Below the pieces are notes generated by a model that worked only from the letters and a program-made list of their open reading frames with translations, had not been told where the DNA came from and made no database searches. Of a DNA stretch of 64,000 bases, positions 3,787 through 23,495 are shown piece by piece (the first letter of the stretch is position 1; every line of letters starts with the position of its first letter). Where the stretch lies: IMG/VR virus record IMGVR_UViG_3300050120_000230, positions 150,325-214,324 of that record; one strand, given 5' to 3'. This DNA is from a virus. Made by a program: the position numbers and the translations under genes.

Positions 3787-4207
3787 GAAACCCAACGACC
3801 CATGGACTACGGCAAGTGGCTCACGCATCAAAGCGTGGTTTGTGATGCGTCTCGATCTGCCTATGTCGCAGGGCAAGTTCGGTATCCAAATTGGGCACGG
3901 CACCGATTTCATTCACATGGTCGGCGCCCAGAATCCATTCTACGAAACGTGGCTTGATCCGCACGGCGGAAACCGCCGTAAGATTGCCCTACGCGCCAAG
4001 ACTCTCGCCGATCTCGAAGTCGTAAAATCTGAATGCGACAAGGCTGGCATGATTACGAAGCTCATCATGGATGCGGGTCTGACCGAGTTCGGCCAACCGA
4101 CCATCACCGGATTGGTGATTCTCCCGCACGATGACGGCACAATCCCGAGCGTTTTGAAGCGGGCTCAAGCATGGCGGCCGACCGATGGCACAGCCCCGAC
4201 CAGCTAA
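3779..4207 (+). CDS. Pth2-type peptidyl-tRNA hydrolase
   Basis: KAWFVMRLDLPMSQGKFGIQIGHG... resembles the PTH2 core (RTDLxMgkGKiaAQcsHA); size about 140 aa; start overlaps the upstream stop. Confidence 0.55.
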   Translation: MSEKPNDPWTTASGSRIKAWFVMRLDLPMSQGKFGIQIGHGTDFIHMVGAQNPFYETWLDPHGGNRRKIALRAKTLADLEVVKSECDKAGMITKLIMDAGLTEFGQPTITGLVILPHDDGTIPSVLKRAQAWRPTDGTAPTS

Positions 4208-4628
4208 CGGACCTCGCGGCTATACCGGTCCACCCGGCTGCGTTGGTCCACCGGGTGTCACACGTCCGTATGGCACCCATGTGACTTCCTTGCCGGGAGT
4301 CTCTCCGTATTTGATGGCCCAATTCAGAGATCAATTTTACCACATGCAACATCGCAAGGGACGTAACGACAATCGAATTTGGCTGCTTGTCAAACTCTTA
4401 AAATGGACAAAGGTCGATCTGCCCATCGAAACCATCAGTCTGGCCGGAGGCCAACGTGATTCTTCTACAGACATGGGTCTGGTGTTTGCCAATTGTGACA
4501 GGGGTGTCCAGAACATTAAAGATTGGTGCGATAGCCAGTGCCGAAAGCCGTGGCGTTATGAACCGTCCGGCACATTTCTTTTTCGTTCAATGAACGATGC
4601 AGCCATTTTCAAACTTAGGTGGTTCTGA
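4185..4628 (+). CDS. paralog-family protein (C-terminal ...IKDWCDSQCRKPWRY...NDAAIFKLRWF)
   Basis: family module at C-terminus. Confidence 0.5.
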   Translation: MAQPRPANGPRGYTGPPGCVGPPGVTRPYGTHVTSLPGVSPYLMAQFRDQFYHMQHRKGRNDNRIWLLVKLLKWTKVDLPIETISLAGGQRDSSTDMGLVFANCDRGVQNIKDWCDSQCRKPWRYEPSGTFLFRSMNDAAIFKLRWF

Positions 4629-6521: not shown

Positions 6522-7294
6522 ATCATCAACTGGTTTGGGTGGAAAGGCCGCGAGTGCACTCCGCACCGTTTCGGCAAATCCCGCTACGCATAGCGGGCAG
6601 ACTAGCGGCCGGTCCCAGCCTTTCCCCCAAACCAATTGAGTGGTGAGTGTCGGACGACACAGTCCTGTCGGTCTGCATCCAGATTCCCGAGTCGGGCATT
6701 GCTCCCGAATTCTCCGCGAGGGGGTTATGATACCCAAGCGGTGGTGCTGTTACCCTCGGCGACAACTCAGCGGCCATCCCTCCACCCGTCATCCCTCGAC
6801 CCGAAAGTTGCCGGGATGGCGAATTCGTGGCACCCACTTCGTTGCACAATCAACCCCGGTATGGACTGCCGGGATGTGCACTAAAGGAGGGGGCAAGGCG
6901 CCGCAAGCTGGTCCCCTCTTTTTCTACCGAACTTCAGATGTCCAATCCTACGTGCTCGGCGACAGTTCGAATATTCCGCTACTGGGGGTCCTTTTTCAGG
7001 AGGCAGTCTACCCCCTTACTAAAAGACCCTTTTCGCGAGGACATCCGCTCTCCCCGATCTGCGCTGCGGAGACTAACCCGCCCGCTCTGACCGAAGTGCG
7101 CTACGCCCAAAACCCTTCGTGTGGTTACAAGAACCCCCGGCTCAATACGCTTAGGCTCAGCCCGCATTGGGCCTGCCCCAGCAACCTTCCGGCGTTGAAA
7201 CCGGCGTTTACGCGTCTTCGCTTACCGCACCCCACCACGAGGTGTTTCGGCTAGAGATGGTGGCCCGGAGGCTCATGTAACCACACGCATACTG

Positions 7295-7394
7295 TGCGGG
7301 GACTAGGGCTCGAACCTAGTGTCTTCCCTACCTCACCGAGTGTGGCCACACCCTCGTATAGTAGGACTGCTCTAACCCGCTGAGCTACCCAACA
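7295..7394 (-). ncRNA. tRNA-like element with D-arm, T-arm (CTAGG-TTCGAGC-CCTAG) and a 29-nt palindromic insertion in place of the anticodon loop; acceptor strands do not pair
   Basis: GCTCAGCGGGTTAGAGC D-arm and canonical T-arm found by eye; inserted hairpin contains GTGTGGCCACAC. Confidence 0.4.
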
Positions 7395-7616
7395 AAACCT
7401 TTTCGGACTTACCGGTTCATCACCGCGCCGAGCGTGCCCCGAAGGGCGGAATTGGCACCACGAGGAAGACTTGCACTTCCATACCCTTGTCAACAGCAAG
7501 GCTCATCATATTCCCGCAGATCGTGGCCACGATCTCCGGCTTTTAGATCACCGTGGTATCTCGTGCCCTCTCGGGCATGTTCATGTTGGTAGCCGTTCCC
7601 CGCTAAGGGACAGTCT

Positions 7617-7673
7617 TATTCGTGGTGGGGATCGAACCCACGACCCAAGGCTCTACCGCTGAGCTACACGACC
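7617..7673 (-). ncRNA. anticodon-arm-less mini tRNA-like element (acceptor + D-arm + T-arm, 57 nt)
   Basis: GGTCGTG-TA-GCTCAGCGGTAGAGC-CTTGGGTC-GTGGG-TTCGATC-CCCAC-CACGAAT; only 8 nt between D and T arms. Confidence 0.4.
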
Positions 7674-8467
7674 TACACTACCACACTTTCACTCAGTTCG
7701 CGTGCACGCTCCCCGAGCTAAACCTAGATTGCGTGAACCTCTCAACGATAGAGCGGAAGGATCAGGCCGCTTCATTGCTTCCACGGCCCATACGATCCAA
7801 TCACCACGCAACCAAACCTTCGTGCCCATTCGGGCGAAATCTCCAACCACGCCCTCGCTCTAAGCGAACGACAACGGATCGGCGAGGTGTCATCGCTGTC
7901 TAGCCCACGATGGTCCCCTTCGGATCGCTCACGCTATATTTCAAGACGCAGCGCCGCAACTTTTTGCCCATTCAGGCGAATTGGTGGAGGGACTTCCCTC
8001 TCCAACGAAGCGGCTCGCGCGGGGCCATCTCCAAAGTCGGAGTGTGAAGTTGGGCCTACCCCCTAAGCAATGGCATTTCGGCCACTCAGGTTTATCCCAC
8101 TTTTCCAGCCTAGTCTCGGGTCTAGAAATCCCTACCTTCAGCTTCTCTCGACACTGAGGGCCAGACACTTCCTCCTGAACCCTCGCGAGGGTTAGAGAAT
8201 CTGCGCTGACACTTTTAGCTCGGAATGCTCACGCAATCCCGCCTCAGTAATTCGTGTTGCCTTCCCGAGATCAGAACGCTGGTAAACCGCCGGGCCAAAC
8301 CCTTTGGCTCTTCCAAGGACTTCTGGTTAGCTAATGCCGAACCAGCGCCCCGTTCTCAAGAACAACCTCAATCTACACCGCCCCCGAGAACGGTCAAGCA
8401 ATTTCTTTTGGTTGACCAAAAATCTTTTCGTGGGAGTATTCAATCTATAGTCAGCCGGGAGAACCAT

Positions 8468-8940: not shown

Positions 8941-9014
8941 TGGCAGGGGTGGAGAGAATCGAACTCTCGTCTTGGGTTTTGGAGACCCCTACTCTACCAT
9001 TGAGCTACACCCCT
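8941..9014 (-). tRNA. tRNA-Trp (anticodon CCA)
   Basis: manual cloverleaf: AGGGGTG/CACCCCT acceptor, loop CTCCAAA, T-arm GAGAG-TTCGATT-CTCTC, CCA encoded; A1-U72. Confidence 0.75.
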
Positions 9015-9094
9015 ATTAGATAACTTGGGATACCACCGGTTGCAAATCAGGATATATACGTAATACTTACGTATTTCCGGGGGCTATCACGACA

Positions 9095-9364
9095 ATGACT
9101 ACTCCATCTACGATCAACGGCGCCACTGTGACTATTGTCAGGATTGGCAAATCTCTCGTTTCCTTGCAGTCACAAAATCTCGTCACACAACCCGCAAGCG
9201 CCGGGCAGATGTCCTTCCAGATCAATTGCGATTCGAAGCTGCTGATCGCGAACTCGAAGATCACGATTTTCTCTTCGACGTTCGGTGCGAAGATCGACAA
9301 CGTCACCGTCCTCGCCGATCATTTCGGCGCGGGTAGTCACCAGATCACTGGCCACGTCATCTGA
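9095..9364 (+). CDS. small hypothetical protein
   Basis: 89-aa ORF between tRNA genes; weak RBS. Confidence 0.3.
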   Translation: MTTPSTINGATVTIVRIGKSLVSLQSQNLVTQPASAGQMSFQINCDSKLLIANSKITIFSSTFGAKIDNVTVLADHFGAGSHQITGHVI

Positions 9365-9368
9365 ATTG

Positions 9369-9458
9369 AGAATCAGGTGGGACTCGAACCCACGGGGACA
9401 AGCTTCGCTTGTTACGGGGGTAAAAACCCCGCCCTCTCGCCGCTGAGGTGACTGATCC
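9369..9458 (-). tRNA. atypical long tRNA-like gene (90 nt, long variable hairpin ACAAGC-GAA-GCTTGT, anticodon loop TTTTTAC reading TTT); identity uncertain
   Basis: acceptor GGATCAG/CTGATTC, T-arm GTGGG-TTCGAGT-CCCAC, anticodon stem CGGGG/CCCCG; three nt between acceptor and D stem. Confidence 0.45.
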
Positions 9459-9498
9459 ATTTATTGAACATTCGTAGAGATATCAATACTATTGGTTA

Positions 9499-10092
9499 AT
9501 GTTTTGTGAATTTTGTTCTGACTTGATTTCTTCTCGATATGGTTCTGGTCGTTTTTGTTCTTCCAAAAGTGCCAGAGGTTTCAGCACCAAAGCTAGGCGC
9601 GCAGAGATCAATTCCAAGGTCAGCAAGAAATTATCGAATAGACCGTCTGGTCGAACGCTCGATTGCGTGACCATTTCTTTTCTGGCTGACAAACGACGTG
9701 AAAAACTCATGGAACTGCCATGGGAATCAATTGGCCTATACGCCAAAAAATCTCGCGTTCTGGGTGAACAAAATCACCGGTGCAATGGATGCAACCTTGA
9801 TGAATGGCGGGGCCAGCCGTTGGTTTTGGAAATCGAACATAAAGATGGCAATAACCAAAACAACGCCCGAGAAAATCTCGAAGGCTTGTGTCCGAATTGC
9901 CATAGCCAAACGCCAACATGGCGTGGTCGTAACAAGGGTCGATCTAAATCAATCTCAGATCAAGAATTCATCGAACATCTGCAAGCTGCTAGCAGCATTC
10001 ATCGCGCGCTGTTGAGCTTAGGTCTCTCAGCGAAGGGAACGAATTATAACCGTGCGAGAACTCTCATCCAATCACATGGCATTTCTATGTGA
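9499..10092 (+). CDS. HNH endonuclease
   Basis: HNH signature ...CNGCNLDEW...EIEHKDGNNQNNARENLEGLCPNCH; stop abuts tRNA-Lys. Confidence 0.65.
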   Translation: MFCEFCSDLISSRYGSGRFCSSKSARGFSTKARRAEINSKVSKKLSNRPSGRTLDCVTISFLADKRREKLMELPWESIGLYAKKSRVLGEQNHRCNGCNLDEWRGQPLVLEIEHKDGNNQNNARENLEGLCPNCHSQTPTWRGRNKGRSKSISDQEFIEHLQAASSIHRALLSLGLSAKGTNYNRARTLIQSHGISM

Positions 10093-10168
10093 TGGTGAAC
10101 CCCCTCGGATTTGAACCGAGAATCTCCTCCTTAAAAGGGAGTTGCATTAACCGTTATGCTAGGGGTCC
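10093..10168 (-). tRNA. tRNA-Lys (anticodon TTT)
   Basis: GGACCCC acceptor, D GCAT/ATGC, loop CTTTTAA, T-arm CTCGG-TTCAAAT-CCGAG, CCA encoded. Confidence 0.75.
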
Positions 10169-10354
10169 GTTAGAAAGTAGCATTCAGAGGTGAATTCATC
10201 TCGGGATATTCTGTCGCGAGAACAGACCCTTCATATGTTCCCCAGCCAACGAAAGCCAGAACTAAAGCAATGATTGTGGTGCCGAGCGCGATTTTGAATG
10301 TCTTTTGCATAGCAACAATTTATCTCTCTGAGATGTTGCGATGCAATATATTTG

Positions 10355-10438
10355 AGGGCGCGGTGGGACTCGAACCCACGGTGTGCTTACGCAAAAAGAT
10401 TAAGAGTCTTCCCCCTTCGCCGCTCGGGACACGCGCCC
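10355..10438 (-). tRNA. atypical class-II-like tRNA (84 nt; Tyr/Ser-like D-loop GAGCGGCGAA, 15-nt variable arm) whose anticodon loop reads CTCTTAA (CTT); identity uncertain
   Basis: acceptor GGGCGCG/CGCGCCC, T-arm GTGGG-TTCGAGT-CCCAC; anticodon stem AAGA/TCTT. Confidence 0.45.
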
Positions 10439-10442
10439 ATGT

Positions 10443-10517
10443 TGGTGGATCGGGAGAGATTCGAACTCTCGACCTTGGGCTTAAGAGGCCCCTGCACTAC
10501 CGCTGTGCTACCAATCC
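10443..10517 (-). tRNA. tRNA-Lys (anticodon CTT)
   Basis: GGATTGG acceptor, loop CTCTTAA, T-arm GAGAG-TTCGAAT-CTCTC, CCA encoded. Confidence 0.7.
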
Positions 10518-10521
10518 ATTG

Positions 10522-10609
10522 TAGTCCTGCTTGGATTCGAACCAAGATCACGCCCCGATCTGGGACTACGGATTATAAATCCGACGCTCTGCCGTTGAGC
10601 TACAGGACC
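10522..10609 (-). tRNA. atypical long tRNA (88 nt, about 21-nt variable region) with anticodon loop TTTATAA (TAT); Ile-UAU-like or other, uncertain
   Basis: GGTCCTG acceptor, D GCTC-AACGGCA-GAGC, T-arm CTTGG-TTCGAAT-CCAAG. Confidence 0.45.
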
Positions 10610-10667
10610 AAAGGGTCTGCTGTAGCAGCGATATTCGTTTACTCATTTGGTCCTCCTCTTTTTGCTG

Positions 10668-10751
10668 TGCGCTCGGCTGGGCTCGAACCAGCAAGACCTT
10701 CCGGCCGCTCCGTTTTAAGTGGAGTGTGGCTACCAGTTTCACCACGAGCGC
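10668..10751 (-). tRNA. tRNA-Leu (anticodon TAA)
   Basis: class II: 3-bp D stem, loop CTTAAAA, 15-nt variable arm, T-arm GCTGG-TTCGAGC-CCAGC. Confidence 0.7.
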
Positions 10752-10756
10752 ATGAT

Positions 10757-10838
10757 TGGTGCCCCTCCTCGGATTCGAACCGAGATGCTTTCGCGCCAGA
10801 TTTTGAATCTGGTGTGTCTACCGTTCCACCAGAGGGGC
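10757..10838 (-). tRNA. tRNA-Leu (anticodon CAA)
   Basis: loop TTCAAAA, stem CCAGA/TCTGG, 11-nt variable arm (GCGAAAGC), CCA encoded. Confidence 0.75.
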
Positions 10839-10881
10839 ATAGAAACCTGAAGATCACATGGCGTGAACCTCAAGTCCATAT

Positions 10882-10963
10882 TGGTGCGGATGGAGGGAAT
10901 CGAACCCCCACGCTTTCGCAACAGATTCTAAATCTGCCGTGGCTACCGTTACACCACATCCGC
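10882..10963 (-). tRNA. tRNA-Leu (anticodon TAG)
   Basis: loop TTTAGAA, variable TGCGAAAGCGT, T-arm GGGGG-TTCGATT-CCCTC, CCA. Confidence 0.75.
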
Positions 10964-10971
10964 ATTGTAGT

Positions 10972-11058
10972 TGGTGCGAATAGCAGGACTCGAACCTGCA
11001 CGGCCTTTCGGCCACTGACTTCTGAAGCCAGCGCGTCTACCTATTCCGCCATACTCGC
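10972..11058 (-). tRNA. tRNA-Leu (anticodon CAG)
   Basis: D GCGG-AATAGGTAGA-CGCG as in bacterial Leu, loop TTCAGAA, 15-nt variable arm, CCA. Confidence 0.8.
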
Positions 11059-11066
11059 ATTGTATT

Positions 11067-11148
11067 TGGTGCCCAGAACAGGACTCGAACCTGCACGCCG
11101 AAGCAACATCCTCTCAGAATGCCGTGTCTACCGTTTCACCATCTGGGC
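11067..11148 (-). tRNA. tRNA-Leu (anticodon GAG)
   Basis: loop CTGAGAG, variable TGCTTCGGCGT, CCA. Confidence 0.75.
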
Positions 11149-11156
11149 ATTGTAGT

Positions 11157-11232
11157 TGGCACAACCGACTGGGCTCGAACCAGTGGCCTCATCCTTCGGA
11201 GGGATGCGCTCTTCCAACTGAGCTACGGCTGT
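11157..11232 (-). tRNA. tRNA-Arg (anticodon CCG)
   Basis: loop CTCCGAA, stem CATCC/GGATG, A1-U72, CCA. Confidence 0.7.
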
Positions 11233-11244
11233 AAATGATGTGCT

Positions 11245-11321
11245 TGGCAGAGACGACAGGGATCGAACCTGTGACCTCCTGATTCGTAGTCAGGCGCTCG
11301 TTCCGGCTGAGCTACGCCTCT
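11245..11321 (-). tRNA. tRNA-Arg (anticodon ACG)
   Basis: loop CTACGAA, stem CCTGA/TCAGG, T-arm ACAGG-TTCGATC-CCTGT, CCA. Confidence 0.75.
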
Positions 11322-11346
11322 GCAAAGCACATCATCGAAGTGTGTT

Positions 11347-11422
11347 TGGCTGGAACGGAGGGGATCGAACCCACGACCTTCAATTCCGCAAACTGACGCT
11401 CTTCCAACTGAGCTACGTCCCA
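11347..11422 (-). tRNA. tRNA-Arg (anticodon GCG)
   Basis: loop TTGCGGA, stem TCAGT/ATTGA, CCA; T-stem has one U-U mismatch. Confidence 0.65.
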
Positions 11423-13875: not shown

Positions 13876-14967
13876 ATGCCTCTTGTTAACAACGTCCGCA
13901 CTACACCCGGCTCGGACGTAAAATTCTTCGCGAACACGACGCCCGATGCAAACTCGGTTGCTAAGGTCGATGCTGTCCCGACTGTTGCTGGACCTCCGGG
14001 TCCGCAAGGTGTTGGCATTCGTTCTATTACGATTTCCGACAGCGATGACCTTCTTTTCACTCTAACTGACAACACCACTATTGACGCAGGTACTCTGCCG
14101 CCCGGTCCCACTGGTCCAACTGGACCTACTGGTGTCACTGGGCCGCCGGGTCCGATTGGTAATATCGGCCCACAGGGTATCAAGGGCGACAAAGGCGACA
14201 CGGGTGCAACCGGCACGGCTGGTATTCCGGGTGTTCAAGGTCCGAAGGGCGACAAAGGCGACACTGGTCTGACGGGTTCCGTTGGCCCGGAAGGCGATCA
14301 CGTCACCAACGCGGTCATCAACGGCTCGAATCACATCATCTTCACGCTGAGCGACAACAGCACTATCGACGCTGGTCTGTTGCCTCCCGGCCCGACCGGC
14401 AACGCAGGCCCCACGGGTCCGCAGGGTCCTCAAGGCGTGGACGTGGCGAACGCGACGATCAACGGTTCGAACCATCTCATCTTCACGCTGTCGAACTCGG
14501 CTGTTATCGATGCCGGTCCTTTGCCGCCCGGCCCCACGGGTGGCATTGGTCCGACTGGACCGGCTGGTCCCGCTGGTCCGCAAGGTAACGCTTCGACGGT
14601 GGCTGGCCCGGCCGGACCCGCAGGCCCGAACTTCGAAACGGTCGTCAATCTCAACACCGCCACCGGAACGGTCACGCTCGATCTTGGCTCGAACAGTTTC
14701 TACAATCTGACCCTCACCGGCAACGTCACCATCGCGTTCTCCAACACGGCGCTGACGACTCGTTCCTATACGGCCGTCGTTTCCATCAAACAGAATTCCA
14801 GCGGTGCGGGAACGTTCACGGTGACGTGGCCGGGAACCTGCAACACGCCGGGCAACGTCGTCTATTCGCAATCGACGGGTCTGGGCGCCACTGACCTCTA
14901 CACCGTGTTCACGATCAACGGCGGGGCGAGCTACTTCCTCAGCCAAATTGGGCAACTGTATTCCTAA
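13876..14967 (+). CDS. collagen-like triple-helix repeat protein, probable tail fibre / structural protein
   Basis: long G-X-Y runs (GPPGPQG..., GPTGPTGPTGVTGPPGPIGNIGPQGIKGDKGDTGATGTAGIPGVQGPKGDKGDTGLTG); preceded by GCATAAATATCGG late-promoter-like motif. Confidence 0.8.
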   Translation: MPLVNNVRTTPGSDVKFFANTTPDANSVAKVDAVPTVAGPPGPQGVGIRSITISDSDDLLFTLTDNTTIDAGTLPPGPTGPTGPTGVTGPPGPIGNIGPQGIKGDKGDTGATGTAGIPGVQGPKGDKGDTGLTGSVGPEGDHVTNAVINGSNHIIFTLSDNSTIDAGLLPPGPTGNAGPTGPQGPQGVDVANATINGSNHLIFTLSNSAVIDAGPLPPGPTGGIGPTGPAGPAGPQGNASTVAGPAGPAGPNFETVVNLNTATGTVTLDLGSNSFYNLTLTGNVTIAFSNTALTTRSYTAVVSIKQNSSGAGTFTVTWPGTCNTPGNVVYSQSTGLGATDLYTVFTINGGASYFLSQIGQLYS

Positions 14968-16567: not shown

Positions 16568-16642
16568 AGTCTCTTAGCTCAGCGGTAGAGCAGCGTCTTG
16601 ATAAGGCGAAGGTCACTGGTTCAATCCCAGTAGGGACTACCA
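16568..16642 (+). tRNA. tRNA-Ile (anticodon GAT)
   Basis: loop TTGATAA, T-arm ACTGG-TTCAATC-CCAGT, CCA; A1-U72. Confidence 0.75.
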
Positions 16643-16657
16643 AATCGCAGGACTTAC

Positions 16658-16732
16658 GGGCGAATAACTCAGCGGTAGAGTGCCTCTTTCACACGGAGGA
16701 AGCCGGGGGTTCGATCCCCTCTTCGCCCACCA
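16658..16732 (+). tRNA. tRNA-Val (anticodon CAC)
   Basis: GGGCGAA acceptor, loop TTCACAC, T-arm GGGGG-TTCGATC-CCCTC, CCA. Confidence 0.7.
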
Positions 16733-16836
16733 CTACTCGATGAGTGACGTAGCTCATCAAGGTCTTTGACATCGTTGATAGCGTGAAATAACGGCCGCTC
16801 CCGTGATCGGGGGCGGCCGACTAAGAAGAGTTTTGC

Positions 16837-16909
16837 TGAGGATTAGTTCAGTTGGTAGAACGCCACACTCTGAATGTGGATGTCCGAGGTTCGAGTCCTT
16901 GATCCTCAG
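16837..16909 (+). tRNA. tRNA-Gln (anticodon CTG)
   Basis: U1-A72 acceptor TGAGGAT/ATCCTCA, D GTTC/GAAC, loop CTCTGAA; no CCA encoded; flanked by inverted repeat gaagagttttgc/gcaaaactcttc. Confidence 0.7.
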
Positions 16910-16966
16910 CAAAACTCTTCTAGTTTTTTCACAAGCGTCCGTCGCAAGACGGCGCCTGTGAACTAA

Positions 16967-17051
16967 TGGGGAATGGTGTAATGGTAACATCCCTGACTTT
17001 GAATCAGGAGACGAGGAGTTTATGTAGGTTCGAGCCCTACTTCCCCAGCCA
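16967..17051 (+). tRNA. tRNA-Gln (anticodon TTG) with unusually long (15-nt) variable region
   Basis: TGGGGAA/TTCCCCA acceptor, loop CTTTGAA, T-arm GTAGG-TTCGAGC-CCTAC, CCA; variable AGACGAGGAGTTTAT. Confidence 0.55.
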
Positions 17052-17073
17052 TATTTTACGCGATGTGTTTTGG

Positions 17074-17151
17074 TGCGGGATGGTAGCAGTCTGGTAGCTC
17101 GTTAGCCTCATAAGCTAAAGGTCAGCGGTTCAAATCCGCTTCCCGCACCCA
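17074..17151 (+). tRNA. tRNA-Met (anticodon CAT; elongator-type or Ile2-lysidine)
   Basis: fMet-like body (AGTCTGGTA D-loop, CTCATAA loop, T-arm AGCGG-TTCAAAT-CCGCT) but U1-A72 paired; CCA encoded. Confidence 0.7.
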
Positions 17152-17171
17152 AACACATCGCGAACCTTTGA

Positions 17172-17249
17172 CGCGGGAAGGACAAGACAGTTAGTCACTA
17201 GCCTCATAAGCTAGACATCTGGCAGATGCGAGCACTGCTCCCGCACCCA
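17172..17249 (+). pseudogene. degenerate duplicate of the tRNA-Met gene (tRNA pseudogene)
   Basis: shares the TAGC-CTCATAA-GCTA anticodon arm and TCCCGCACCCAAAC 3-prime end with the upstream tRNA-Met but lacks D and T arms; C1xA72 mismatch. Confidence 0.5.
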
Positions 17250-17324
17250 AACTTGGCACGGTGATGAACCGGTAAGTCCACAGAGTTATTGACTTGGTGC
17301 TACGAAAATCCGTAGCTGCAAGGT

Positions 17325-17657
17325 ATGAATGATCCACCCAAATTCGTCCGAGCCAGCCGCGAATATCGAGAGCATCTCATCGCTTTCGTTCAGCGGGCAG
17401 TTTGGGCGAGAGGACAGCCGGGTTTCGAGTTCGATGTGATGGGACGAACGTTCCTGATCGCGACCGAGACTGACTACCTTCCGGGTTGGTCAGCCCGGCC
17501 TCTAACTCAACCGGACTTGATCTTCTTCAAAATGTTGTCGCGAGAACGCGATGACAACCACTGGGGCGCCTATTGGCGTCGCGGCAAGGGGATGAAGGTT
17601 TACGGAAACAGCACCGTATTCGAGCGGGACATGCTTTTCCTCAAGTTCGCAGAATAA
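17325..17657 (+). CDS. paralog-family protein (two copies of the motif: DLIFFKMLS and ERDMLFLKFAE)
   Basis: 110-aa ORF between tRNA arrays; family motif at C-terminus. Confidence 0.5.
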   Translation: MNDPPKFVRASREYREHLIAFVQRAVWARGQPGFEFDVMGRTFLIATETDYLPGWSARPLTQPDLIFFKMLSRERDDNHWGAYWRRGKGMKVYGNSTVFERDMLFLKFAE

Positions 17658-17822
17658 GCGAAATATCGTACAACACGAAAAGCGATAAATCGTGCAAGGA
17701 ATCATCGGGATCAGCGTCGGCAGTTCCTCCCCTCGGGGTGTGAAAACGGACCCCCGGTGACTTAGGCTAGAGGGTTGTAGGTGACCTGTATTTGACTGGG
17801 AACCTTCGTCCATGTGTTTTGT

Positions 17823-17899
17823 CAGGGTGTAGCTCAGTCTGGTAGAGTGGCGTCCTCGGATGGCGAGGGTCGCAGGTTCAAATCCTGCCACCCTGACCA
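17823..17899 (+). tRNA. tRNA-Pro (anticodon CGG)
   Basis: C1-G72 acceptor CAGGGTG/CACCCTG typical of Pro, loop CTCGGAT, CCA; flanked by inverted repeat catgtgtttt/aaacacatg. Confidence 0.7.
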
Positions 17900-18071
17900 A
17901 ACACATGGTTCACCAAATGGATGTGCTTTCCGAGAGGCATGTTGTGCATCGTCAAGAACAATCACCGTCCGTAGAGGGACGCCCGAGCGGGTTGCGGAGA
18001 TTGTAGGAGACGATGTGCCAAGCGCGCGAACGGCTGCAAATCGGCATGTCTCGCGGTAAGCACATCCATGA

Positions 18072-18147
18072 TGGATAGTAGCTCAGTTGGTAGAGCTTTC
18101 GGTTGTTACCCGAATGGTCGCAGGTTCGAGCCCTGCCTATCCAGCCA
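18072..18147 (+). tRNA. tRNA-Asn (anticodon GTT)
   Basis: loop TTGTTAC, stem TTCGG/CCGAA, T-arm GCAGG-TTCGAGC-CCTGC, CCA. Confidence 0.7.
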
Positions 18148-18166
18148 AAATGACCTTCGGGTCTGA

Positions 18167-18241
18167 TTGGACGTAGCACAATGGTAGTGCAACTCCCTGT
18201 TAAGGAGAAGGTTGTAGGTTCGAGTCCTACCGTCCGAGCCA
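18167..18241 (+). tRNA. tRNA-Asn (anticodon GTT), second copy
   Basis: loop CTGTTAA, D GCAC/GTGC, T-arm GTAGG-TTCGAGT-CCTAC, CCA. Confidence 0.65.
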
Positions 18242-18331
18242 TTTCTGGGTGGGCTGCAACCCCCAACTTCATCCATCGGGTGAAGAGGTGAGACGCACAA
18301 AGCGCGTCTCTGACAAAGCGCAGCACATCAT

Positions 18332-18407
18332 GGGGCCATAGCTCAGTTGGTAGAGCGATTCCTCGGCAGGGAATAGGTCGCCGGTTCGACTCCGGCTGGC
18401 TCCACCA
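18332..18407 (+). tRNA. tRNA-Ala (anticodon GGC)
   Basis: G3-U70 identity pair (GGGGCCA/TGGCTCC), loop TCGGCAG (C at position 33), CCA. Confidence 0.7.
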
Positions 18408-18605
18408 TTAAAGAAAGCCCCGCTGTTTCCAGCGAGGCTCCCTAGACCGAATCCACCACCGCACCGAAGCGCGGACATCAAAGGTGGACATCGTCACAAG
18501 GGATGTCAAGACCCGCTGTCCAAGGCTTGGACGGCACTCGCTGTCCAAGGCTTGGACAGCACTCCGCACGGTGATGAGCCGATAAGTCGGCAGATTTTGC
18601 CCACC

Positions 18606-18640
18606 AAAAAAGGCCCCGGCGAACCGGGGCCTTGATGGCA
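18606..18640 (-). terminator. rho-independent terminator for the minus-strand gene ending at 18661
   Basis: ggccccggcgaaccggggcc hairpin followed (minus strand) by TTTTTT. Confidence 0.6.
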
Positions 18641-18660
18641 CTGCACCGAAGTGCGGATGC

Positions 18661-18858
18661 TTAGGCGGTTTCGGCGTCCGAGCGGGTCGCGTATTCGGCC
18701 TTCAGGGATTCGAGGATCGACTGCTTGGCGGTGGCGTCGGTGACCGACGTTTCGCCGAGTTCGCGTTCGACCTTGGAAATGGCGTTCTTGATGTGCGGGG
18801 TTGCCATCTTCGACACCGGGGTTTCCGTGGTGCCGGACTTCCAGACTGCTTCAGCCAC
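18661..18858 (-). CDS. small hypothetical protein (65 aa)
   Basis: GTG start with AAGGAGG 7 nt upstream; terminator immediately downstream. Confidence 0.55.
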   Translation of the reverse strand: MAEAVWKSGTTETPVSKMATPHIKNAISKVERELGETSVTDATAKQSILESLKAEYATRSDAETA

Positions 18859-18980
18859 AAGGGCCTCCTTGGTAGGTGGGTGGGAGTGCTAACCGGTTTG
18901 GTTAACGAAAACCATATATCCACCCCTGCGGCGTCATGTCAACAGCACAAAATCGTGCACTGCTCGTTGAGGGAAAACAC

Positions 18981-19054
18981 GGGGTAATAGCTCAATGGTC
19001 GAGCACCGGCTTCGCAAGTCGGGGATCAGGGTTCGATTCCCTGTTACTCCACCA
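18981..19054 (+). tRNA. tRNA-Ala (anticodon CGC)
   Basis: G3-U70 (GGGGTAA/TTACTCC), loop TTCGCAA, T-arm CAGGG-TTCGATT-CCCTG, CCA. Confidence 0.7.
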
Positions 19055-19079
19055 AACATAAATAGTTTCAACTACATAT

Positions 19080-19155
19080 GCTGTCTTAGCTCAGTTGGTA
19101 GAGCGCCGTATTGGTAATGCGGAGGTGGTGGGTTCGATCCCCGCAGTCAGCACCA
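19080..19155 (+). tRNA. tRNA-Thr (anticodon GGT)
   Basis: loop TTGGTAA, stem CCGTA/TGCGG, CCA; one acceptor mismatch. Confidence 0.65.
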
Positions 19156-19158
19156 TTT

Positions 19159-19235
19159 CAGGGTATAGCGCAGCATGGTAGCGCGTCACGTCGGGAACGT
19201 GAAGGTCGCAGGTTCAAATCCTGCTATCCTGACCA
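19159..19235 (+). tRNA. tRNA-Pro (anticodon GGG)
   Basis: C1-G72 acceptor CAGGGTA/TATCCTG, loop TCGGGAA (C33), T-arm GCAGG-TTCAAAT-CCTGC, CCA. Confidence 0.65.
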
Positions 19236-19241
19236 ATTAGG

Positions 19242-19547
19242 TCAATCCATACAGAACGGATTGGCGATGTTCGTCAGCGGCACAGTGTCCAAGATGATCG
19301 GGTTTTTGAAGAACTCGGACGTAAATTGATGCGAACCATTCGGGTTCATATATCGACGAGTTGCGGCCGTTTGGGCTCCCTTGACGGTTTTGAATACGCC
19401 GCTGAACCACATGATTTTATCAGCATCGCGTGGTGAGGTAACGCCGTACTGCCAAACGGTCATACCTTTCGGGTGTTCGATCCCTCTGGCATAGAACTTC
19501 TGCTCAATGGGAGCGTCATTCTCCGTGATGATTTCTCTCATACGCAT
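19242..19547 (-). CDS. hypothetical protein
   Basis: ORF 19242..19658 trimmed to an internal Met because its 5-prime end would overlap tRNA-Pro(TGG). Confidence 0.35.
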   Translation of the reverse strand: MRMREIITENDAPIEQKFYARGIEHPKGMTVWQYGVTSPRDADKIMWFSGVFKTVKGAQTAATRRYMNPNGSHQFTSEFFKNPIILDTVPLTNIANPFCMD

Positions 19548-19580
19548 ATGAATATTTAGGCCGCATGGCCAAACAGACAT

Positions 19581-19657
19581 CGGGGTGTAGCTCAGCTTGA
19601 TAGAGCATCCGGTTTGGGACCGGAGGGTCGGAGGTTTGAGTCCTCTCGCCCCGACCA
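19581..19657 (+). tRNA. tRNA-Pro (anticodon TGG)
   Basis: C1-G72 acceptor CGGGGTG/CGCCCCG, loop TTTGGGA, T-loop TTTGAGT, CCA. Confidence 0.7.
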
Positions 19658-19686
19658 ATTCAGAGACCTTCCCAAAGGGTCTCTAC

Positions 19687-19763
19687 GGTAATGTAGCTCA
19701 GTCAGGTAGAGCAGCGGGCTCATAACTCGCGTGTCGCTGGTTCGATCCCAGCCATTACCACCA
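19687..19763 (+). tRNA. tRNA-Met or tRNA-Ile2 (anticodon CAT)
   Basis: GGTAATG/CATTACC acceptor, loop CTCATAA, T-arm GCTGG-TTCGATC-CCAGC, CCA. Confidence 0.7.
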
Positions 19764-19764
19764 C

Positions 19765-19839
19765 GGACGATTAACTCAGCGGTAGAGTGCCTCTATGACA
19801 TGGAGGAAGCCACTGGTTCGATCCCAGTATCGTCCACCA
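19765..19839 (+). tRNA. tRNA-Val (anticodon GAC)
   Basis: one nt after the preceding tRNA; loop ATGACAT, T-arm ACTGG-TTCGATC-CCAGT, CCA. Confidence 0.7.
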
Positions 19840-19901
19840 ATTTACTTGACGAAACGCCCGTCCATGAGATCATATGTTGATCTTGCAAAGGGAGGGCATC
19901 C

Positions 19902-20177
19902 ATGACGACTGTGAAACTCTCCGAAGCGGAACACAACGCTCTCTCACTTCTGGTTCGCTCGGGCGGCTCGATCCTCACGTCGGCCATTCCCGATAAGAAC
20001 GAGAAGGACGTGTTTGACAACGTCGAGGCAGGCATCAAGGTCTACGTGAAACTTGAGACCCGTGGTCTGGTTGTCGTGACCGAGGAAGAGCCGTTCGAAC
20101 TTGAAGACGGCACCGAGTTCCAGTTCACGAACGAAGTCTACATCACCGACGAAGGTCGGCACGCTATCAACCGCTAA
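19902..20177 (+). CDS. hypothetical protein (91 aa)
   Basis: strong RBS AAGGGAGGG; acidic, protein-like composition. Confidence 0.55.
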   Translation: MTTVKLSEAEHNALSLLVRSGGSILTSAIPDKNEKDVFDNVEAGIKVYVKLETRGLVVVTEEEPFELEDGTEFQFTNEVYITDEGRHAINR

Positions 20178-20240
20178 CAGGCCACATATGGCCTATTAGG
20201 CGCCGGAAACGGTTCTAATAGGCCAACTATGGCCTCTTAT

Positions 20241-20315
20241 GCTTGGGTAGCTCAGGGGTAGAGCAGTGGGCTGAAAATCCGCGTGTCGTTGGTTCGATTC
20301 CAACTCCAAGCACCA
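20241..20315 (+). tRNA. tRNA-Phe (anticodon GAA)
   Basis: loop CTGAAAA, D GCTC-AGGGGTA-GAGC, T-arm GTTGG-TTCGATT-CCAAC, CCA. Confidence 0.75.
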
Positions 20316-20485
20316 TTTTGGTTATTTTGACCGCAAGGTAGATCATACCGCCCGGCCAAAGCAAACCGCCCCACAAAACTTGGCACAGAAATGTGCACAA
20401 GTCGAAGTGGTTGGATTTGATCTCTATGACCTGAAGAAGGCCCCAGAAGATCAATCCAATCAAAGAGTAAACAATCCATGGGCTC

Positions 20486-21616
20486 ATGCCCATATTTAGA
20501 GAGGAACGGTCCCTTGGAGTTTCACGGCTAAGCCCAGAGCGCCTTAATCGGTATCTGGCACTGCAAGATTTGACCGACGCATCGTCGGGCGAACACGCAA
20601 TCAACCTCGTGCTGGACAAGCTGGTAACGGCAATTGAGCAATGGTCGGGCCTCAAGGCAGACATCGTTCGGTCCACTCCTATCGTTTCCGTTCGGGACAA
20701 CTACGACCGGCTCTACTATGAGCCGGACGCGGTCGCACGCTCTGCGCGCTATTCCCACTACGTTGACGATGAGCACATTCTTCGCACCCACACGACGGCG
20801 GCCATTCCCGGCCTGCTGACGGAGACCACGGCCGACCGGCTGATGGTTCTACCGGGTCTTGTCTATCGCCGCGATGTGATGGATCGGATGCATGTGGGAG
20901 AACCGCACCAAGTCGATCTCTGGGTCGCTAGGCGGTCAAGGCTCCGTCGTGATGATCTGTTGAAGATGATCGGCGCGGTTCTCAACGCGATCCTGCCCGG
21001 CTGCGAATACCGCTGCAACGAGACAATCCATCCATACACAGTAAATGGCTTGGAGGTCGAGGTTCGTGTGGACGACCGGTGGATAGAGGTGCTCGAATGT
21101 GGGGAAATCCATCCGTGGCTTTTGAACGACAACGGCTTGCCTAGTCAGGAGTGGTCGGGCTTGGCGATGGGGCTGGGCCTAGACCGCCTTGTAATGCTCC
21201 TGAAGGGCATGGACGACATTCGGCTGCTTCGCAGCACGGATGCTCGTATTGCCCGCCAGATGGCTTCCCTGAGCCCCTACGAGGCTGTTTCGAACCAACC
21301 TATGACCAAGCGGGATATGTCGCTCACGGTGAGTGATCCTGACATCGAATTGATCGGAGATCGCATCCGGGTGGCGCTCGGTGATCGGGCTGACTGGTTG
21401 GAAGAGATCGTGGTCGTTTCGGCATCGAGTTGGGATGAAGTCCCGGCCGTGGCGAGGGAGCGTCTTGGGATGGCGCCTGAGCACACGAACCTGTTGCTGC
21501 GGCTCATCATGCGCTCACCGTCCGAGAGCATTCCGAAAGAGATCGCCAACGAAATCTACGACATAGTCTATGGCGAGCTTCACGAAGGATCGGCGGGGTA
21601 TCAGCGTGTATCATAA
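20486..21616 (+). CDS. pheS: phenylalanyl-tRNA synthetase alpha-subunit (PheS)-like class II aaRS catalytic core
   Basis: motif 2 VLPGLVYRRDVMDRMHVGEPHQVDLWV (cf. [27 protein letters not shown]) and motif 3 SGLAMGLGLDRLVMLLKGMDDIRLL (cf. [25 protein letters not shown]); ILRTHTTAAIPGLL matches LLRTQTSGVQIRTM; lies directly after tRNA-Phe. Confidence 0.75.
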   Translation: MPIFREERSLGVSRLSPERLNRYLALQDLTDASSGEHAINLVLDKLVTAIEQWSGLKADIVRSTPIVSVRDNYDRLYYEPDAVARSARYSHYVDDEHILRTHTTAAIPGLLTETTADRLMVLPGLVYRRDVMDRMHVGEPHQVDLWVARRSRLRRDDLLKMIGAVLNAILPGCEYRCNETIHPYTVNGLEVEVRVDDRWIEVLECGEIHPWLLNDNGLPSQEWSGLAMGLGLDRLVMLLKGMDDIRLLRSTDARIARQMASLSPYEAVSNQPMTKRDMSLTVSDPDIELIGDRIRVALGDRADWLEEIVVVSASSWDEVPAVARERLGMAPEHTNLLLRLIMRSPSESIPKEIANEIYDIVYGELHEGSAGYQRVS

Positions 21617-21766
21617 ACAAGACGGGAAGGCCCTTAATGCATCGTTTATGATGCACTACGGTCGATTTCACAGTCTAGTGCATCAGTTTTGATGCATTAC
21701 GCAATTCGCCAAAAATGACGAGTTATGAACAAAAATAGCCCTAACTCGTCAAAATTGGCGAATTAT

Positions 21767-21841
21767 GTCGATGTAGCTTAGTGGCTAAAGCATCCGGTTG
21801 AAACCCGGAGATCGGCGGTTCGAACCCGCCCATCGGCACCA
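21767..21841 (+). tRNA. tRNA-Phe (anticodon GAA), second copy
   Basis: loop TTGAAAC, stem TCCGG/CCGGA, T-arm GGCGG-TTCGAAC-CCGCC, CCA. Confidence 0.65.
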
Positions 21842-23045: not shown

Positions 23046-23495
23046 GTGCGGATGGAAGTTTGTCTCATTCGCCCCGACCATTTCGACGCCATGGATGACA
23101 TCCTGAATGGTAATGGGATGCCGCTCGCTCGTGCGTTCCCGCCGACCTATTTCGTGGCGCTGGATAGAGGGGAAGTCATCGGTGGTGGGGGATACGCCAA
23201 GATCAACCCAAGTACGGGCTGGCTGGCGTCTGTGGCCGTCGCCAAGCACCGCAAGCGCACCGGGGTGGGTTCGGCTGTCGTTGCCGCCAATCTACGCTAT
23301 GCGGCCGAACGTGGAATGGGGTCGATGTGGCTGGAAACGTATTTCTGGAACAGCCGGTTCTATGAGAGCCTTGGTTTCGAAGGCATCGCACCCGCCCTCG
23401 TCCCGGCTCGCATCAAGGAGTGGAGAACCAAGAAGCACTGCCGCTTCATGGCGAACACTCTATTGCCAGCGCATTTTGAAATGAAGCGCCTCTGA
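23046..23495 (+). CDS. GNAT-family N-acetyltransferase
   Basis: acetyl-CoA binding region VAKHRKRTGVGSAVVAANLRYAAERG and C-terminal YESLGFEGI. Confidence 0.6.
   Translation: MRMEVCLIRPDHFDAMDDILNGNGMPLARAFPPTYFVALDRGEVIGGGGYAKINPSTGWLASVAVAKHRKRTGVGSAVVAANLRYAAERGMGSMWLETYFWNSRFYESLGFEGIAPALVPARIKEWRTKKHCRFMANTLLPAHFEMKRL

Follow-up and report, generated by a model that had tools for sequence, protein, structure and literature searches.

Bacterial phenylalanyl-tRNA synthetase (PheRS) is a heterotetramer of PheS (alpha) and PheT (beta) chains, as in Escherichia coli (3pco) and Mycobacterium tuberculosis (Mtb, 7ka0). A one-chain design, with a PheS-type core joined to an FDX-ACB domain, has been described so far for mitochondrial PheRS only (PMC3275996), and a 2010 review gave the mitochondrial enzyme as the sole monomeric class II example of its type. 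Huge phages carry tRNAs and aminoacyl-tRNA synthetases (aaRSs), with a proposed role in charging their own tRNA variants (Al-Shayeb et al. 2020, PMC7162821). Here we analyzed a 64,000-nucleotide (nt) stretch of viral DNA (positions 150,325 to 214,324 of the IMG/VR record IMGVR_UViG_3300050120_000230; hereafter, the window) and focused on a gene of the SrmL family, related to PheS, that lies between two tRNA-Phe genes. The window is rich in tRNAs (31 in 64 kb), and its synthetase-like gene beside putative cognate tRNAs fits this proposed role. The aaRSs of that study were TIGRFAM-confirmed and host-related, whereas the window protein fails the PheS TIGRFAMs, and a PheRS-type or monomeric enzyme is not mentioned there.

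Profile searches assigned the window protein to SrmL and not to canonical PheS. It matched the curated equivalog model NF051887 of NCBIfam ('PheS-related mystery ligase SrmL', cut-off 300 bits) with 443.1 bits (E=6.6e-133) and end to end, amino acids (aa) 27-368 falling on model positions 2-349 of 349. The signature residues of the family were derived from 85 aligned members (from 80 bacterial loci, from phages and from the window, covering several phyla), and all of them are present: R129, P140, D144, W146, H182, Y184, G188, E204, L226, and, in the C-terminal domain, N335 and N355. The full-length match, the two domains and the invariant residues are the same as in the 84 other members examined. 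A preliminary description of the window, made from the sequence without database searches, had called the protein a phage PheS. This name does not fit, as SrmL is a curated, uncharacterized and mostly bacterial family and not a phage invention, and the curated models for PheS and mitochondrial PheRS failed. The profile searches did not, however, assign it to a non-aaRS family, since SrmL is aaRS-like, albeit not PheS proper.

A large protein database contained more than 4,000 SrmL matches, and a scan of one genome per species detected SrmL, as a stand-alone gene, in at least 570 bacterial species. Among the matches listed were Myxococcota, Actinomycetota, Patescibacteria, Gemmatimonadota, and Alpha- and Gammaproteobacteria, and the bacterial proteins among them were all full length, with 44-68% identity. 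Complete genomes that carry SrmL include Sorangium So ce1078 and Minicystis rosea, and there are Patescibacteria contigs of 608-704 kb with the gene. In IMG/VR the family was found in only five contigs (145-578 kb), and a single full-length match was found among GenBank phages, in one 635-kb genome. In a rough neighbor-joining tree, the window SrmL was placed in a clade of high-GC huge phages, sister to alphaproteobacterial sequences, and low-GC huge phages formed a second SrmL clade. Literature searches for SrmL, monomeric PheRS, and PheS-like or FDX-ACB bacterial enzymes returned no paper on SrmL and no characterized member, and PheRS goes unmentioned in a review on duplicated aaRSs. What was already known is the curated family model; what is reported here is a huge-phage, tRNA-Phe-flanked context for an uncharacterized family.

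Judging from profiles and a structure model, the window protein is a one-chain fusion of a PheS-type catalytic module and a PheT-type anticodon-binding domain. Pfam recognized the PheS-type core that the preliminary description had proposed (Table 1), and sequence matches in the PDB were PheS alpha chains (E down to 2e-22). Motif 2 (YRRD...HQVD), motif 3 and the LRTHTT stretch were all present as described and aligned to PheS structures. The N-terminal coiled coil of bacterial PheS is indeed missing: the alignment to E. coli PheS begins at about E. coli residue 103, and the model has only short N-terminal helices. A C-terminal extension is present as well, although it is larger than the ~85 aa first given (~115 aa, residues 262-376) and identifiable as an FDX-ACB domain.

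Several lines of evidence support this domain assignment. The Pfam FDX-ACB model PF03147 was sub-threshold on the window protein (13.6 bits, model positions 1-86 of 94) and passed on the SrmL family member P0117 (36.2 bits against a threshold of 31.1). A profile of 25 SrmL C-terminal domains, compared with all PDB sequences, matched only PheT B8 and the C-terminal domain of mitochondrial PheRS (Pseudomonas aeruginosa PheT B8, 4p71, residues 691-784, E=2e-5; Mtb PheT was also matched), and hhalign related the SrmL domain to E. coli PheT B8 with a probability of 89% (E=2.5e-6). In an AlphaFold2 model built with 26 family members (pLDDT 88, pTM 0.84), the domain has a beta-alpha-beta ... beta-alpha layout. 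The top full-length fold match in the PDB was human mitochondrial PheRS in the closed state (3cmq; TMq 0.75, TMt 0.70, 391 columns); the matches to bacterial PheS alpha chains covered only the catalytic half of the model, and no protein with the SrmL two-domain fold was found in the viral structure library BFVD. With its C-terminal FDX-ACB domain, the whole protein has the architecture of mitochondrial PheRS.

Both SrmL and mitochondrial PheRS (human FARS2; 3cmq, 3tup) are single chains of ~380-415 aa that comprise a PheS-type module, a linker and a C-terminal FDX-ACB domain, with no editing domain. However, they share only ~21% identity, and SrmL failed the mitochondrial model TIGR00469. Mitochondrial PheRS retains the FPF motif, the motif 2 Phe and the Asp364/Phe366/Arg414 readout of G34, whereas in SrmL the FPF and the motif 2 Phe are replaced and the G34 readout is unrecognizable. 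Segments of human mitochondrial PheRS were 39-47% identical to bacterial PheS and 27-39% to five diverse SrmL, a rough comparison of pairwise scores on a partial human sequence and not a phylogeny. We considered SrmL as an ancestor or sister of mitochondrial PheRS, and this is disfavored by the rough comparison, in which the mitochondrial enzyme is closer to canonical PheS. SrmL is more likely a separate lineage of the same architecture than an orthologue of mitochondrial PheRS, and because it is the outlier relative to both the mitochondrial and the bacterial enzymes, the shared architecture more likely goes back to a separate or very old fusion.

Compared with bacterial PheRS, the SrmL core shares homology with PheS, at 25-33% identity, and the C-terminal domain with PheT B8; conserved in both enzymes are the arginines of motifs 2 and 3 and the residues equivalent to E. 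coli T251 and A294. SrmL differs from it in being one chain and not two, in lacking the coiled coil and the B1-B7 domains, and in having HPY for FPF, Pro for the adenine-stacking Phe and Glu for the Phe-cavity Gly. Without the PheT B1-B7 domains it would not edit; an editing role, which the preliminary description had raised, is not borne out, as the window protein has no B3/B4-like editing domain. The absence of PheT nearby was confirmed by tblastn of the 64-kb window (best E=1.0). PheT was likewise not found in the loci of SrmL relatives examined, nor was any PheT-like sequence, even at E<=1, in the complete 634,780-bp SrmL phage genome LR745206.1. The 59 tRNAs of this genome, two of them tRNA-Phe, cover all 20 amino acids, and the SrmL homologue is its only PheS-like gene, alongside a HisRS-like gene and a class IIb-like gene.

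The window SrmL open reading frame (ORF) lies directly 3' of a tRNA-Phe gene, and ATG 20486 is the earliest possible start downstream of an in-frame stop. Among the 31 tRNAs that ARAGORN detected in the window, only two are tRNA-Phe; they flank the ORF, one before and one after it, and share its strand, in agreement with the copy number reported before. Both are canonical cloverleaves, with Rfam tRNA scores of 61.9 (upstream) and 65.3 bits (downstream). The arrangement of tRNA-Phe, SrmL and tRNA-Phe was found in six loci (relatives are given by their L numbers): the window, L098 and L099 (both 91% identity to the window protein), L089 (87%, downstream copy 8 nt past the stop), L090 (74%, with a third copy further upstream), and L091 (73%, two copies upstream and one 7 nt past the stop). 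At L087 (66%), a tRNA-Phe is present upstream only, one tRNA away. With random placement in a same-strand array of 17 tRNAs including two tRNA-Phe, both neighbors would be tRNA-Phe in (2/17)(1/16) or ~0.7% of cases by simple arithmetic. The sandwich has been kept through considerable divergence and through rearrangement of the rest of the tRNA array. 

Table 1 Features of the SrmL locus in the window (all on the + strand).
Feature	Position	Residues	Remarks
Same-strand tRNA array upstream of the locus	16568..19839		15 tRNAs; ARAGORN, Rfam tRNA matches
tRNA-Phe(GAA), upstream type	20241..20315		ARAGORN; bacterial-like, anticodon loop CUGAAAA, A73, encoded CCA
Spacer from tRNA-Phe to the SrmL start codon	20316..20485		170 nt; no convincing promoter or terminator
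SrmL-family gene, single-chain PheRS-like class II ligase	20486..21616		ORF of 376 aa, ~1.1 kb
Class II PheS-type catalytic module	20585..21262	34-259	Pfam PF01409 (tRNA-synt_2d), E=1.2e-34
Motif 2 region	20855..20923	124-146	GLVYRRDVMDRMHVGEPHQVDLW; R128, H136, Q142 invariant; family-specific P140, D144, W146
HPYT	21029..21040	182-185	Replaces the FPFT phenyl-ring sandwich found in bacterial and mitochondrial PheRS; H, Y and T invariant (85/85)
Motif 3	21158..21187	225-234	GLAMGLGLDR; G225, A227 (equivalent to E. coli A294), G229, G231, R234 invariant
C-terminal FDX-ACB (PheT-B8-like) anticodon-binding domain with short linker	21269..21613	262-376	From Pfam, profile, hhalign and structure model
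tRNA-Phe(GAA), downstream type	21767..21841		ARAGORN; anticodon loop UUGAAAC (U32, C38), A73, CCA

The upstream tRNA-Phe had 93-100% identity with the upstream copies of L089, L090 and L091; its identity with E. coli tRNA-Phe was 82% (the E. coli reference was verified). The downstream type also lies 3' of the SrmL gene in L089, L090, L091, L098 and L099, and the copies of L089, L090 and L091, when aligned, had a mutual identity of 67-83%; by these alignments it is the faster-evolving of the two species. An origin of the pair by att-site duplication upon insertion of a mobile element was rejected, because both genes in the window are full length and only 61% identical to one another. The tRNAs upstream of the locus (Ile, Val, Gln x2, Met x2, Pro x3, Asn x2, Ala x2, Thr and Val) have the same order in L087, L089, L090 and L098. 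In the spacer between tRNA-Phe and SrmL, a promoter and terminator scan gave counts no higher than in shuffled sequence, and Rfam gave tRNAs only, with no T-box or other leader RNA. The SrmL gene is probably co-transcribed with the tRNA array.

The window SrmL gene is under purifying selection, with a ratio of nonsynonymous to synonymous substitution rates (dN/dS) of 0.11-0.20 against phage relatives of 58-91% identity. Across the 85 aligned members, R128 (motif 2), H136, Q142, E201, G225, A227, G229, G231 and R234 (motif 3) were conserved in 84-85 sequences; R128, H136, E201 and R234 were found in all 85, and Q142 in 84. By alignment, H136 corresponds to Mtb alphaHis209, one jaw of the adenine clamp. 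The invariant T185 and A227 are the equivalents of E. coli T251 and A294; A294 is the determinant of para-position specificity, and T251 has the same role. At the positions of Thermus Phe258 and Phe260, which sandwich the phenyl ring, SrmL has H182 and Y184, with HPY for FPF in 85/85. We considered this replacement as evidence against Phe specificity and dropped it, since human cytosolic PheRS, a genuine PheRS, has Asn410 and Tyr412 at the sandwich positions and Asn434 at the position of Mtb Gly282 (PMC3275996, PMC8136816) and still selects Phe; for the same reason, the pocket changes do not decide which amino acid is used. By the alignment, the amino-acid pocket of SrmL is remodeled but strictly conserved, and not decayed. 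The conservation of ATP- and Phe-binding residues, which the preliminary description had suggested checking, thus held in part: the adenylation residues are invariant, and the adenine-stacking Phe and several Phe-cavity residues are replaced. By alignment, D277 (77/85) and S279 (85/85) of the anticodon-binding domain match two Mtb residues in contact with A36/A37 and A35, beta'Asp745 and beta'Ser747.

We favor, with moderate confidence, the reading that SrmL charges tRNA-Phe as a PheRS-type synthetase that does not edit and works without a beta subunit. No beta subunit would be needed because the PheT-type anticodon-binding domain is fused to the PheS-like module. In the proposed mechanism, the amino acid that the catalytic module converts to an aminoacyl-adenylate would most probably be phenylalanine or a closely similar aromatic one; the anticodon stem-loop of tRNA-Phe(GAA) would be docked by the FDX-ACB domain, and the amino acid would then be moved to A76. 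By this scheme the enzyme would act as a monomer with tRNA as its acceptor, and the phage would supply Phe-accepting tRNAs and their charging enzyme together, as part of a huge-phage translation-support gene set. The preliminary description had suggested a monomeric PheRS as in mitochondria. The architecture agrees with this (core with fused FDX-ACB, best match 3cmq), whereas we only infer the synthesis of Phe-tRNA-Phe, because several of the adenine-stacking, Phe-cavity and G34-reading residues are replaced by other family-invariant ones.

A number of observations weigh against this reading. The window protein scored 108.3 bits with the pheS model TIGR00468 (cut-off 237) and 114 bits, in two stretches, with the pheS_mito model TIGR00469 (cut-off 258), and so failed both; it also failed the archaeal-type model NF003210 (74 bits, cut-off 350). 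The NCBI curators' own name for the family is 'mystery ligase', and the searchable literature held no biochemical data on SrmL. In the active site, P140 (84/85) occupies the position of Mtb alphaPhe213, the second jaw of the adenine clamp, the invariant E204 aligns with Mtb alphaGly282 in the L-Phe cavity, and the invariant D144 and W146 stand at E. coli Glu210 and Leu212. G34 is read by Asp364 (essential), the stacking Phe366, Ser375 and Arg414 in human mitochondrial PheRS (PMC7540514), and by Asp778, Phe780 and Arg830 in Mtb PheRS. The Asp-x-aromatic dyad of the mitochondrial, Mtb and Thermus enzymes was unrecognizable in SrmL in either the HMMER or the hhalign register, and no conserved C-terminal Arg for G34 was found across the family alignment. 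The dyad position holds S312 and T314 in the HMMER register and is variable in the hhalign register, and the position of mitochondrial Ser375 is an invariant Asn335; as the two alignments disagree in that segment, the dyad is described as not recognizable and not as absent. The tRNA-Phe linkage is also confined. All sandwich loci come from one phage clade, so that they amount to about one evolutionary event that was maintained, and tRNA-Phe was found within 8 kb of SrmL in 0/80 bacterial genome loci and near SrmL in 0/78 other metagenome loci. Unlike the phage-borne window copy between its tRNA-Phe genes, the bacterial SrmL examined are stand-alone genes with no tRNA-Phe nearby.

Two alternatives stay in play on account of the invariant Pro140 and Glu204 and of the G34 dyad that could not be recognized. 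SrmL may be the same tRNA-dependent enzyme working with another amino acid, in which case tRNA-Phe or the U32/C38 species would be loaded with a polar aromatic or other non-Phe residue, giving an orthogonal-like pair or an aminoacyl-tRNA for non-ribosomal use. We consider this unlikely. In its favor, the side-chain cavity of SrmL has the invariant polar or charged residues H182, Y184, E204 and D144, along with W146, none of which is seen in bacterial and mitochondrial PheRS; E204 falls in the L-Phe cavity by alignment; the residues for G34 readout are not those of canonical PheRS; the gene retains two different tRNA-Phe species at its side; and the paralog is kept by bacteria that presumably already have PheST. 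It has to contend with the invariant T185 and A227, with the selection of Phe by human cytosolic PheRS despite polar residues or Tyr at the same positions, and with the ordinary GAA anticodons of both flanking tRNAs, given which mis-charging would mean proteome-wide substitution at Phe codons; nor is a conserved biosynthetic or transferase partner gene found nearby. Alternatively, SrmL could be a paralog that is no synthetase, either a ligase that attaches amino acids to proteins or small molecules, or a tRNA-binding regulator. Such aaRS-derived paralogs with other jobs include HisZ, AsnA, EpmA/PoxA and the SerRS-like amino acid:carrier-protein ligases. Scores that reach the cut-off of no curated PheRS model and the 'mystery ligase' name are in keeping with this, as are the change of the adenine-stacking Phe to Pro, the unrecognizable G34-reading residues, and a sporadic bacterial distribution without tRNA linkage. 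We nevertheless regard it as improbable, given a complete and conserved FDX-ACB domain under selection in which the Asp and Ser contacting A35-A37 are kept, and a gene context that, where there is any, consists of tRNA arrays, aaRS genes, tmRNA or RNA repair, with no conserved carrier-protein or target gene nearby and no defence-system match.

The remaining explanations fare worse. An ordinary PheS alpha subunit that uses host PheT, boosting or replacing the host alpha chain, would account for the PheS-type core and for the failure to find a phage PheT, but it is largely refuted and, in our estimate, very improbable: SrmL has no coiled coil and brings its own PheT-type anticodon domain, it reaches 108 bits against the PheS cut-off of 237, it is farther from bacterial PheS than human mitochondrial PheRS is, and the genes most closely related to it are bacterial SrmL genes that stand alone. 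A decaying or functionless acquisition that came to lie by tRNA-Phe accidentally could draw on the sandwich cases being from one clade only, and is scarcely credible, as the selection analysis contradicts it, the window copy retains all of the family-invariant residues, and the arrangement persists while the remaining array rearranges. Membership in a defence or counter-defence system was rejected, as no PADLOC model matched the window SrmL protein at E<=0.01.

The gene neighborhoods were compared among bacteria and phages. A GC3-aware analysis of the 80 bacterial loci detected no conserved neighbor of SrmL (the best cluster was found in 9/80, at scattered positions), as would be expected of a self-sufficient enzyme. 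A 'conserved neighbor' from a longest-ORF analysis was rejected, being an antisense shadow ORF of SrmL in high-GC genomes that disappeared with the GC3 filter. In Patescibacteria the context is cellular, with genes for polysaccharide synthesis, dCTP deaminase and diaminopimelate (DAP) decarboxylase. A convergent class IIb aaRS gene lies ~100 bp downstream of SrmL in five syntenic loci (L016, L020, L045, L054 and L056), which are labeled Patescibacteria, Gammaproteobacteria, Saccharibacteria, Hyphomicrobium and 'uncultured bacterium'; the 13-22 kb Proteobacteria-labeled contigs among them are probably mis-binned Patescibacteria DNA. The bacterial SrmL nearest the phage clade, L003/L004, is located at ~2.01 Mb of the 7.2-Mb alphaproteobacterial chromosome OY970184.1. 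Its surroundings contain an rve integrase, a Phage_capsid fragment, a small NusG-like gene and tRNA-Asn, a setting that would fit exchange between phages and hosts by way of an integrated mobile element.

In the 508-kb phage L085, SrmL follows a HisRS-like ORF, and a SerRS gene, itself after five tRNA-Ser genes, is 1.6 kb away. The HisRS-like ORF (7348-7983) encodes a truncated class II core of 211 aa directly 5' of SrmL, and a 78%-identical copy is found at 345440-346057 of LR745206.1, beside the tRNA cluster that holds both tRNA-Phe; this core may be another aaRS-derived paralog. In the 517-kb phage L084, a polynucleotide kinase-phosphatase gene (HAD_PNKP and AAA_33, 6907-8004) overlaps the SrmL start codon, which, as enzymes of this type repair nuclease-cut tRNAs, suggests an operon joining tRNA repair and charging. 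A permuted tmRNA (3853-4228, tag ANDTNYSLAA) lies ~4 kb from SrmL in the 181-kb phage contig L086. Near the SrmL and tRNA region, L090 encodes a PTH2-type peptidyl-tRNA hydrolase (7389-7811) and L091 has a weak ribosome-modulation-factor-like gene (10648-10866), both of which add to the translation-related cargo.

The window comes from the genome of a huge phage, since a syntenic relative, the 569,661-bp contig of L089 (JAWVHG010000015.1), carries a T4-like capsid domain and the window itself has tail fibre and virion genes. A protein identical to the window SrmL was also found on a 69.7-kb metagenome contig. The window genes include a collagen-like tail fibre and a virion structural protein, the remainder being unknown. 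The collagen-repeat protein (13876-14967, +) matched many phage tail-fibre PHROGs and is syntenic in L089. A GNAT acetyltransferase gene (Acetyltransf_1; 23046-23495, +), with no PADLOC match, follows the locus at a distance of ~1.4 kb, and its position is conserved in L089 (12851-13315). Some GNAT enzymes acetylate aminoacyl-tRNAs. The 31 tRNAs of the window form two divergent arrays (8941-11422, -, and 16568-21841, +). Several have odd lengths for their isotype, namely tRNA-Lys at 9368-9458 (91 nt) and 10354-10438 (85 nt), tRNA-Ile(UAU) at 10521-10609 (89 nt), and tRNA-Gln at 16967-17051 (85 nt), and tRNA-Met at 17074-17151 has an Rfam score of just 37 bits; these may reflect insertions, introns or mis-calls.

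A broader and more speculative scenario, which we think doubtful as a whole, is that SrmL is a second, independently assembled single-chain PheRS-type lineage of bacteria, Patescibacteria and huge phages with its own substrate rules, that is, a remodeled pocket and a non-canonical anticodon readout. In the huge-phage clade it would be delivered with a dedicated U32/C38 tRNA-Phe as a quasi-orthogonal pair, either sustaining Phe decoding once the tRNA-Phe or the PheRS of the host is disabled, or allowing a Phe analogue to be inserted. If true, mitochondrial PheRS could no longer be viewed as the sole monomeric class II enzyme of its kind. The phage placement is the most direct contextual clue to the SrmL substrate, and the flanking tRNAs are its natural candidate partners. 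If SrmL is a beta-independent PheRS, it would be the first such enzyme outside organelles and a very compact one (~1.1 kb), with potential use in synthetic biology, and it would bear on why hundreds of bacterial species, including the reduced Patescibacteria, keep SrmL alongside PheST.

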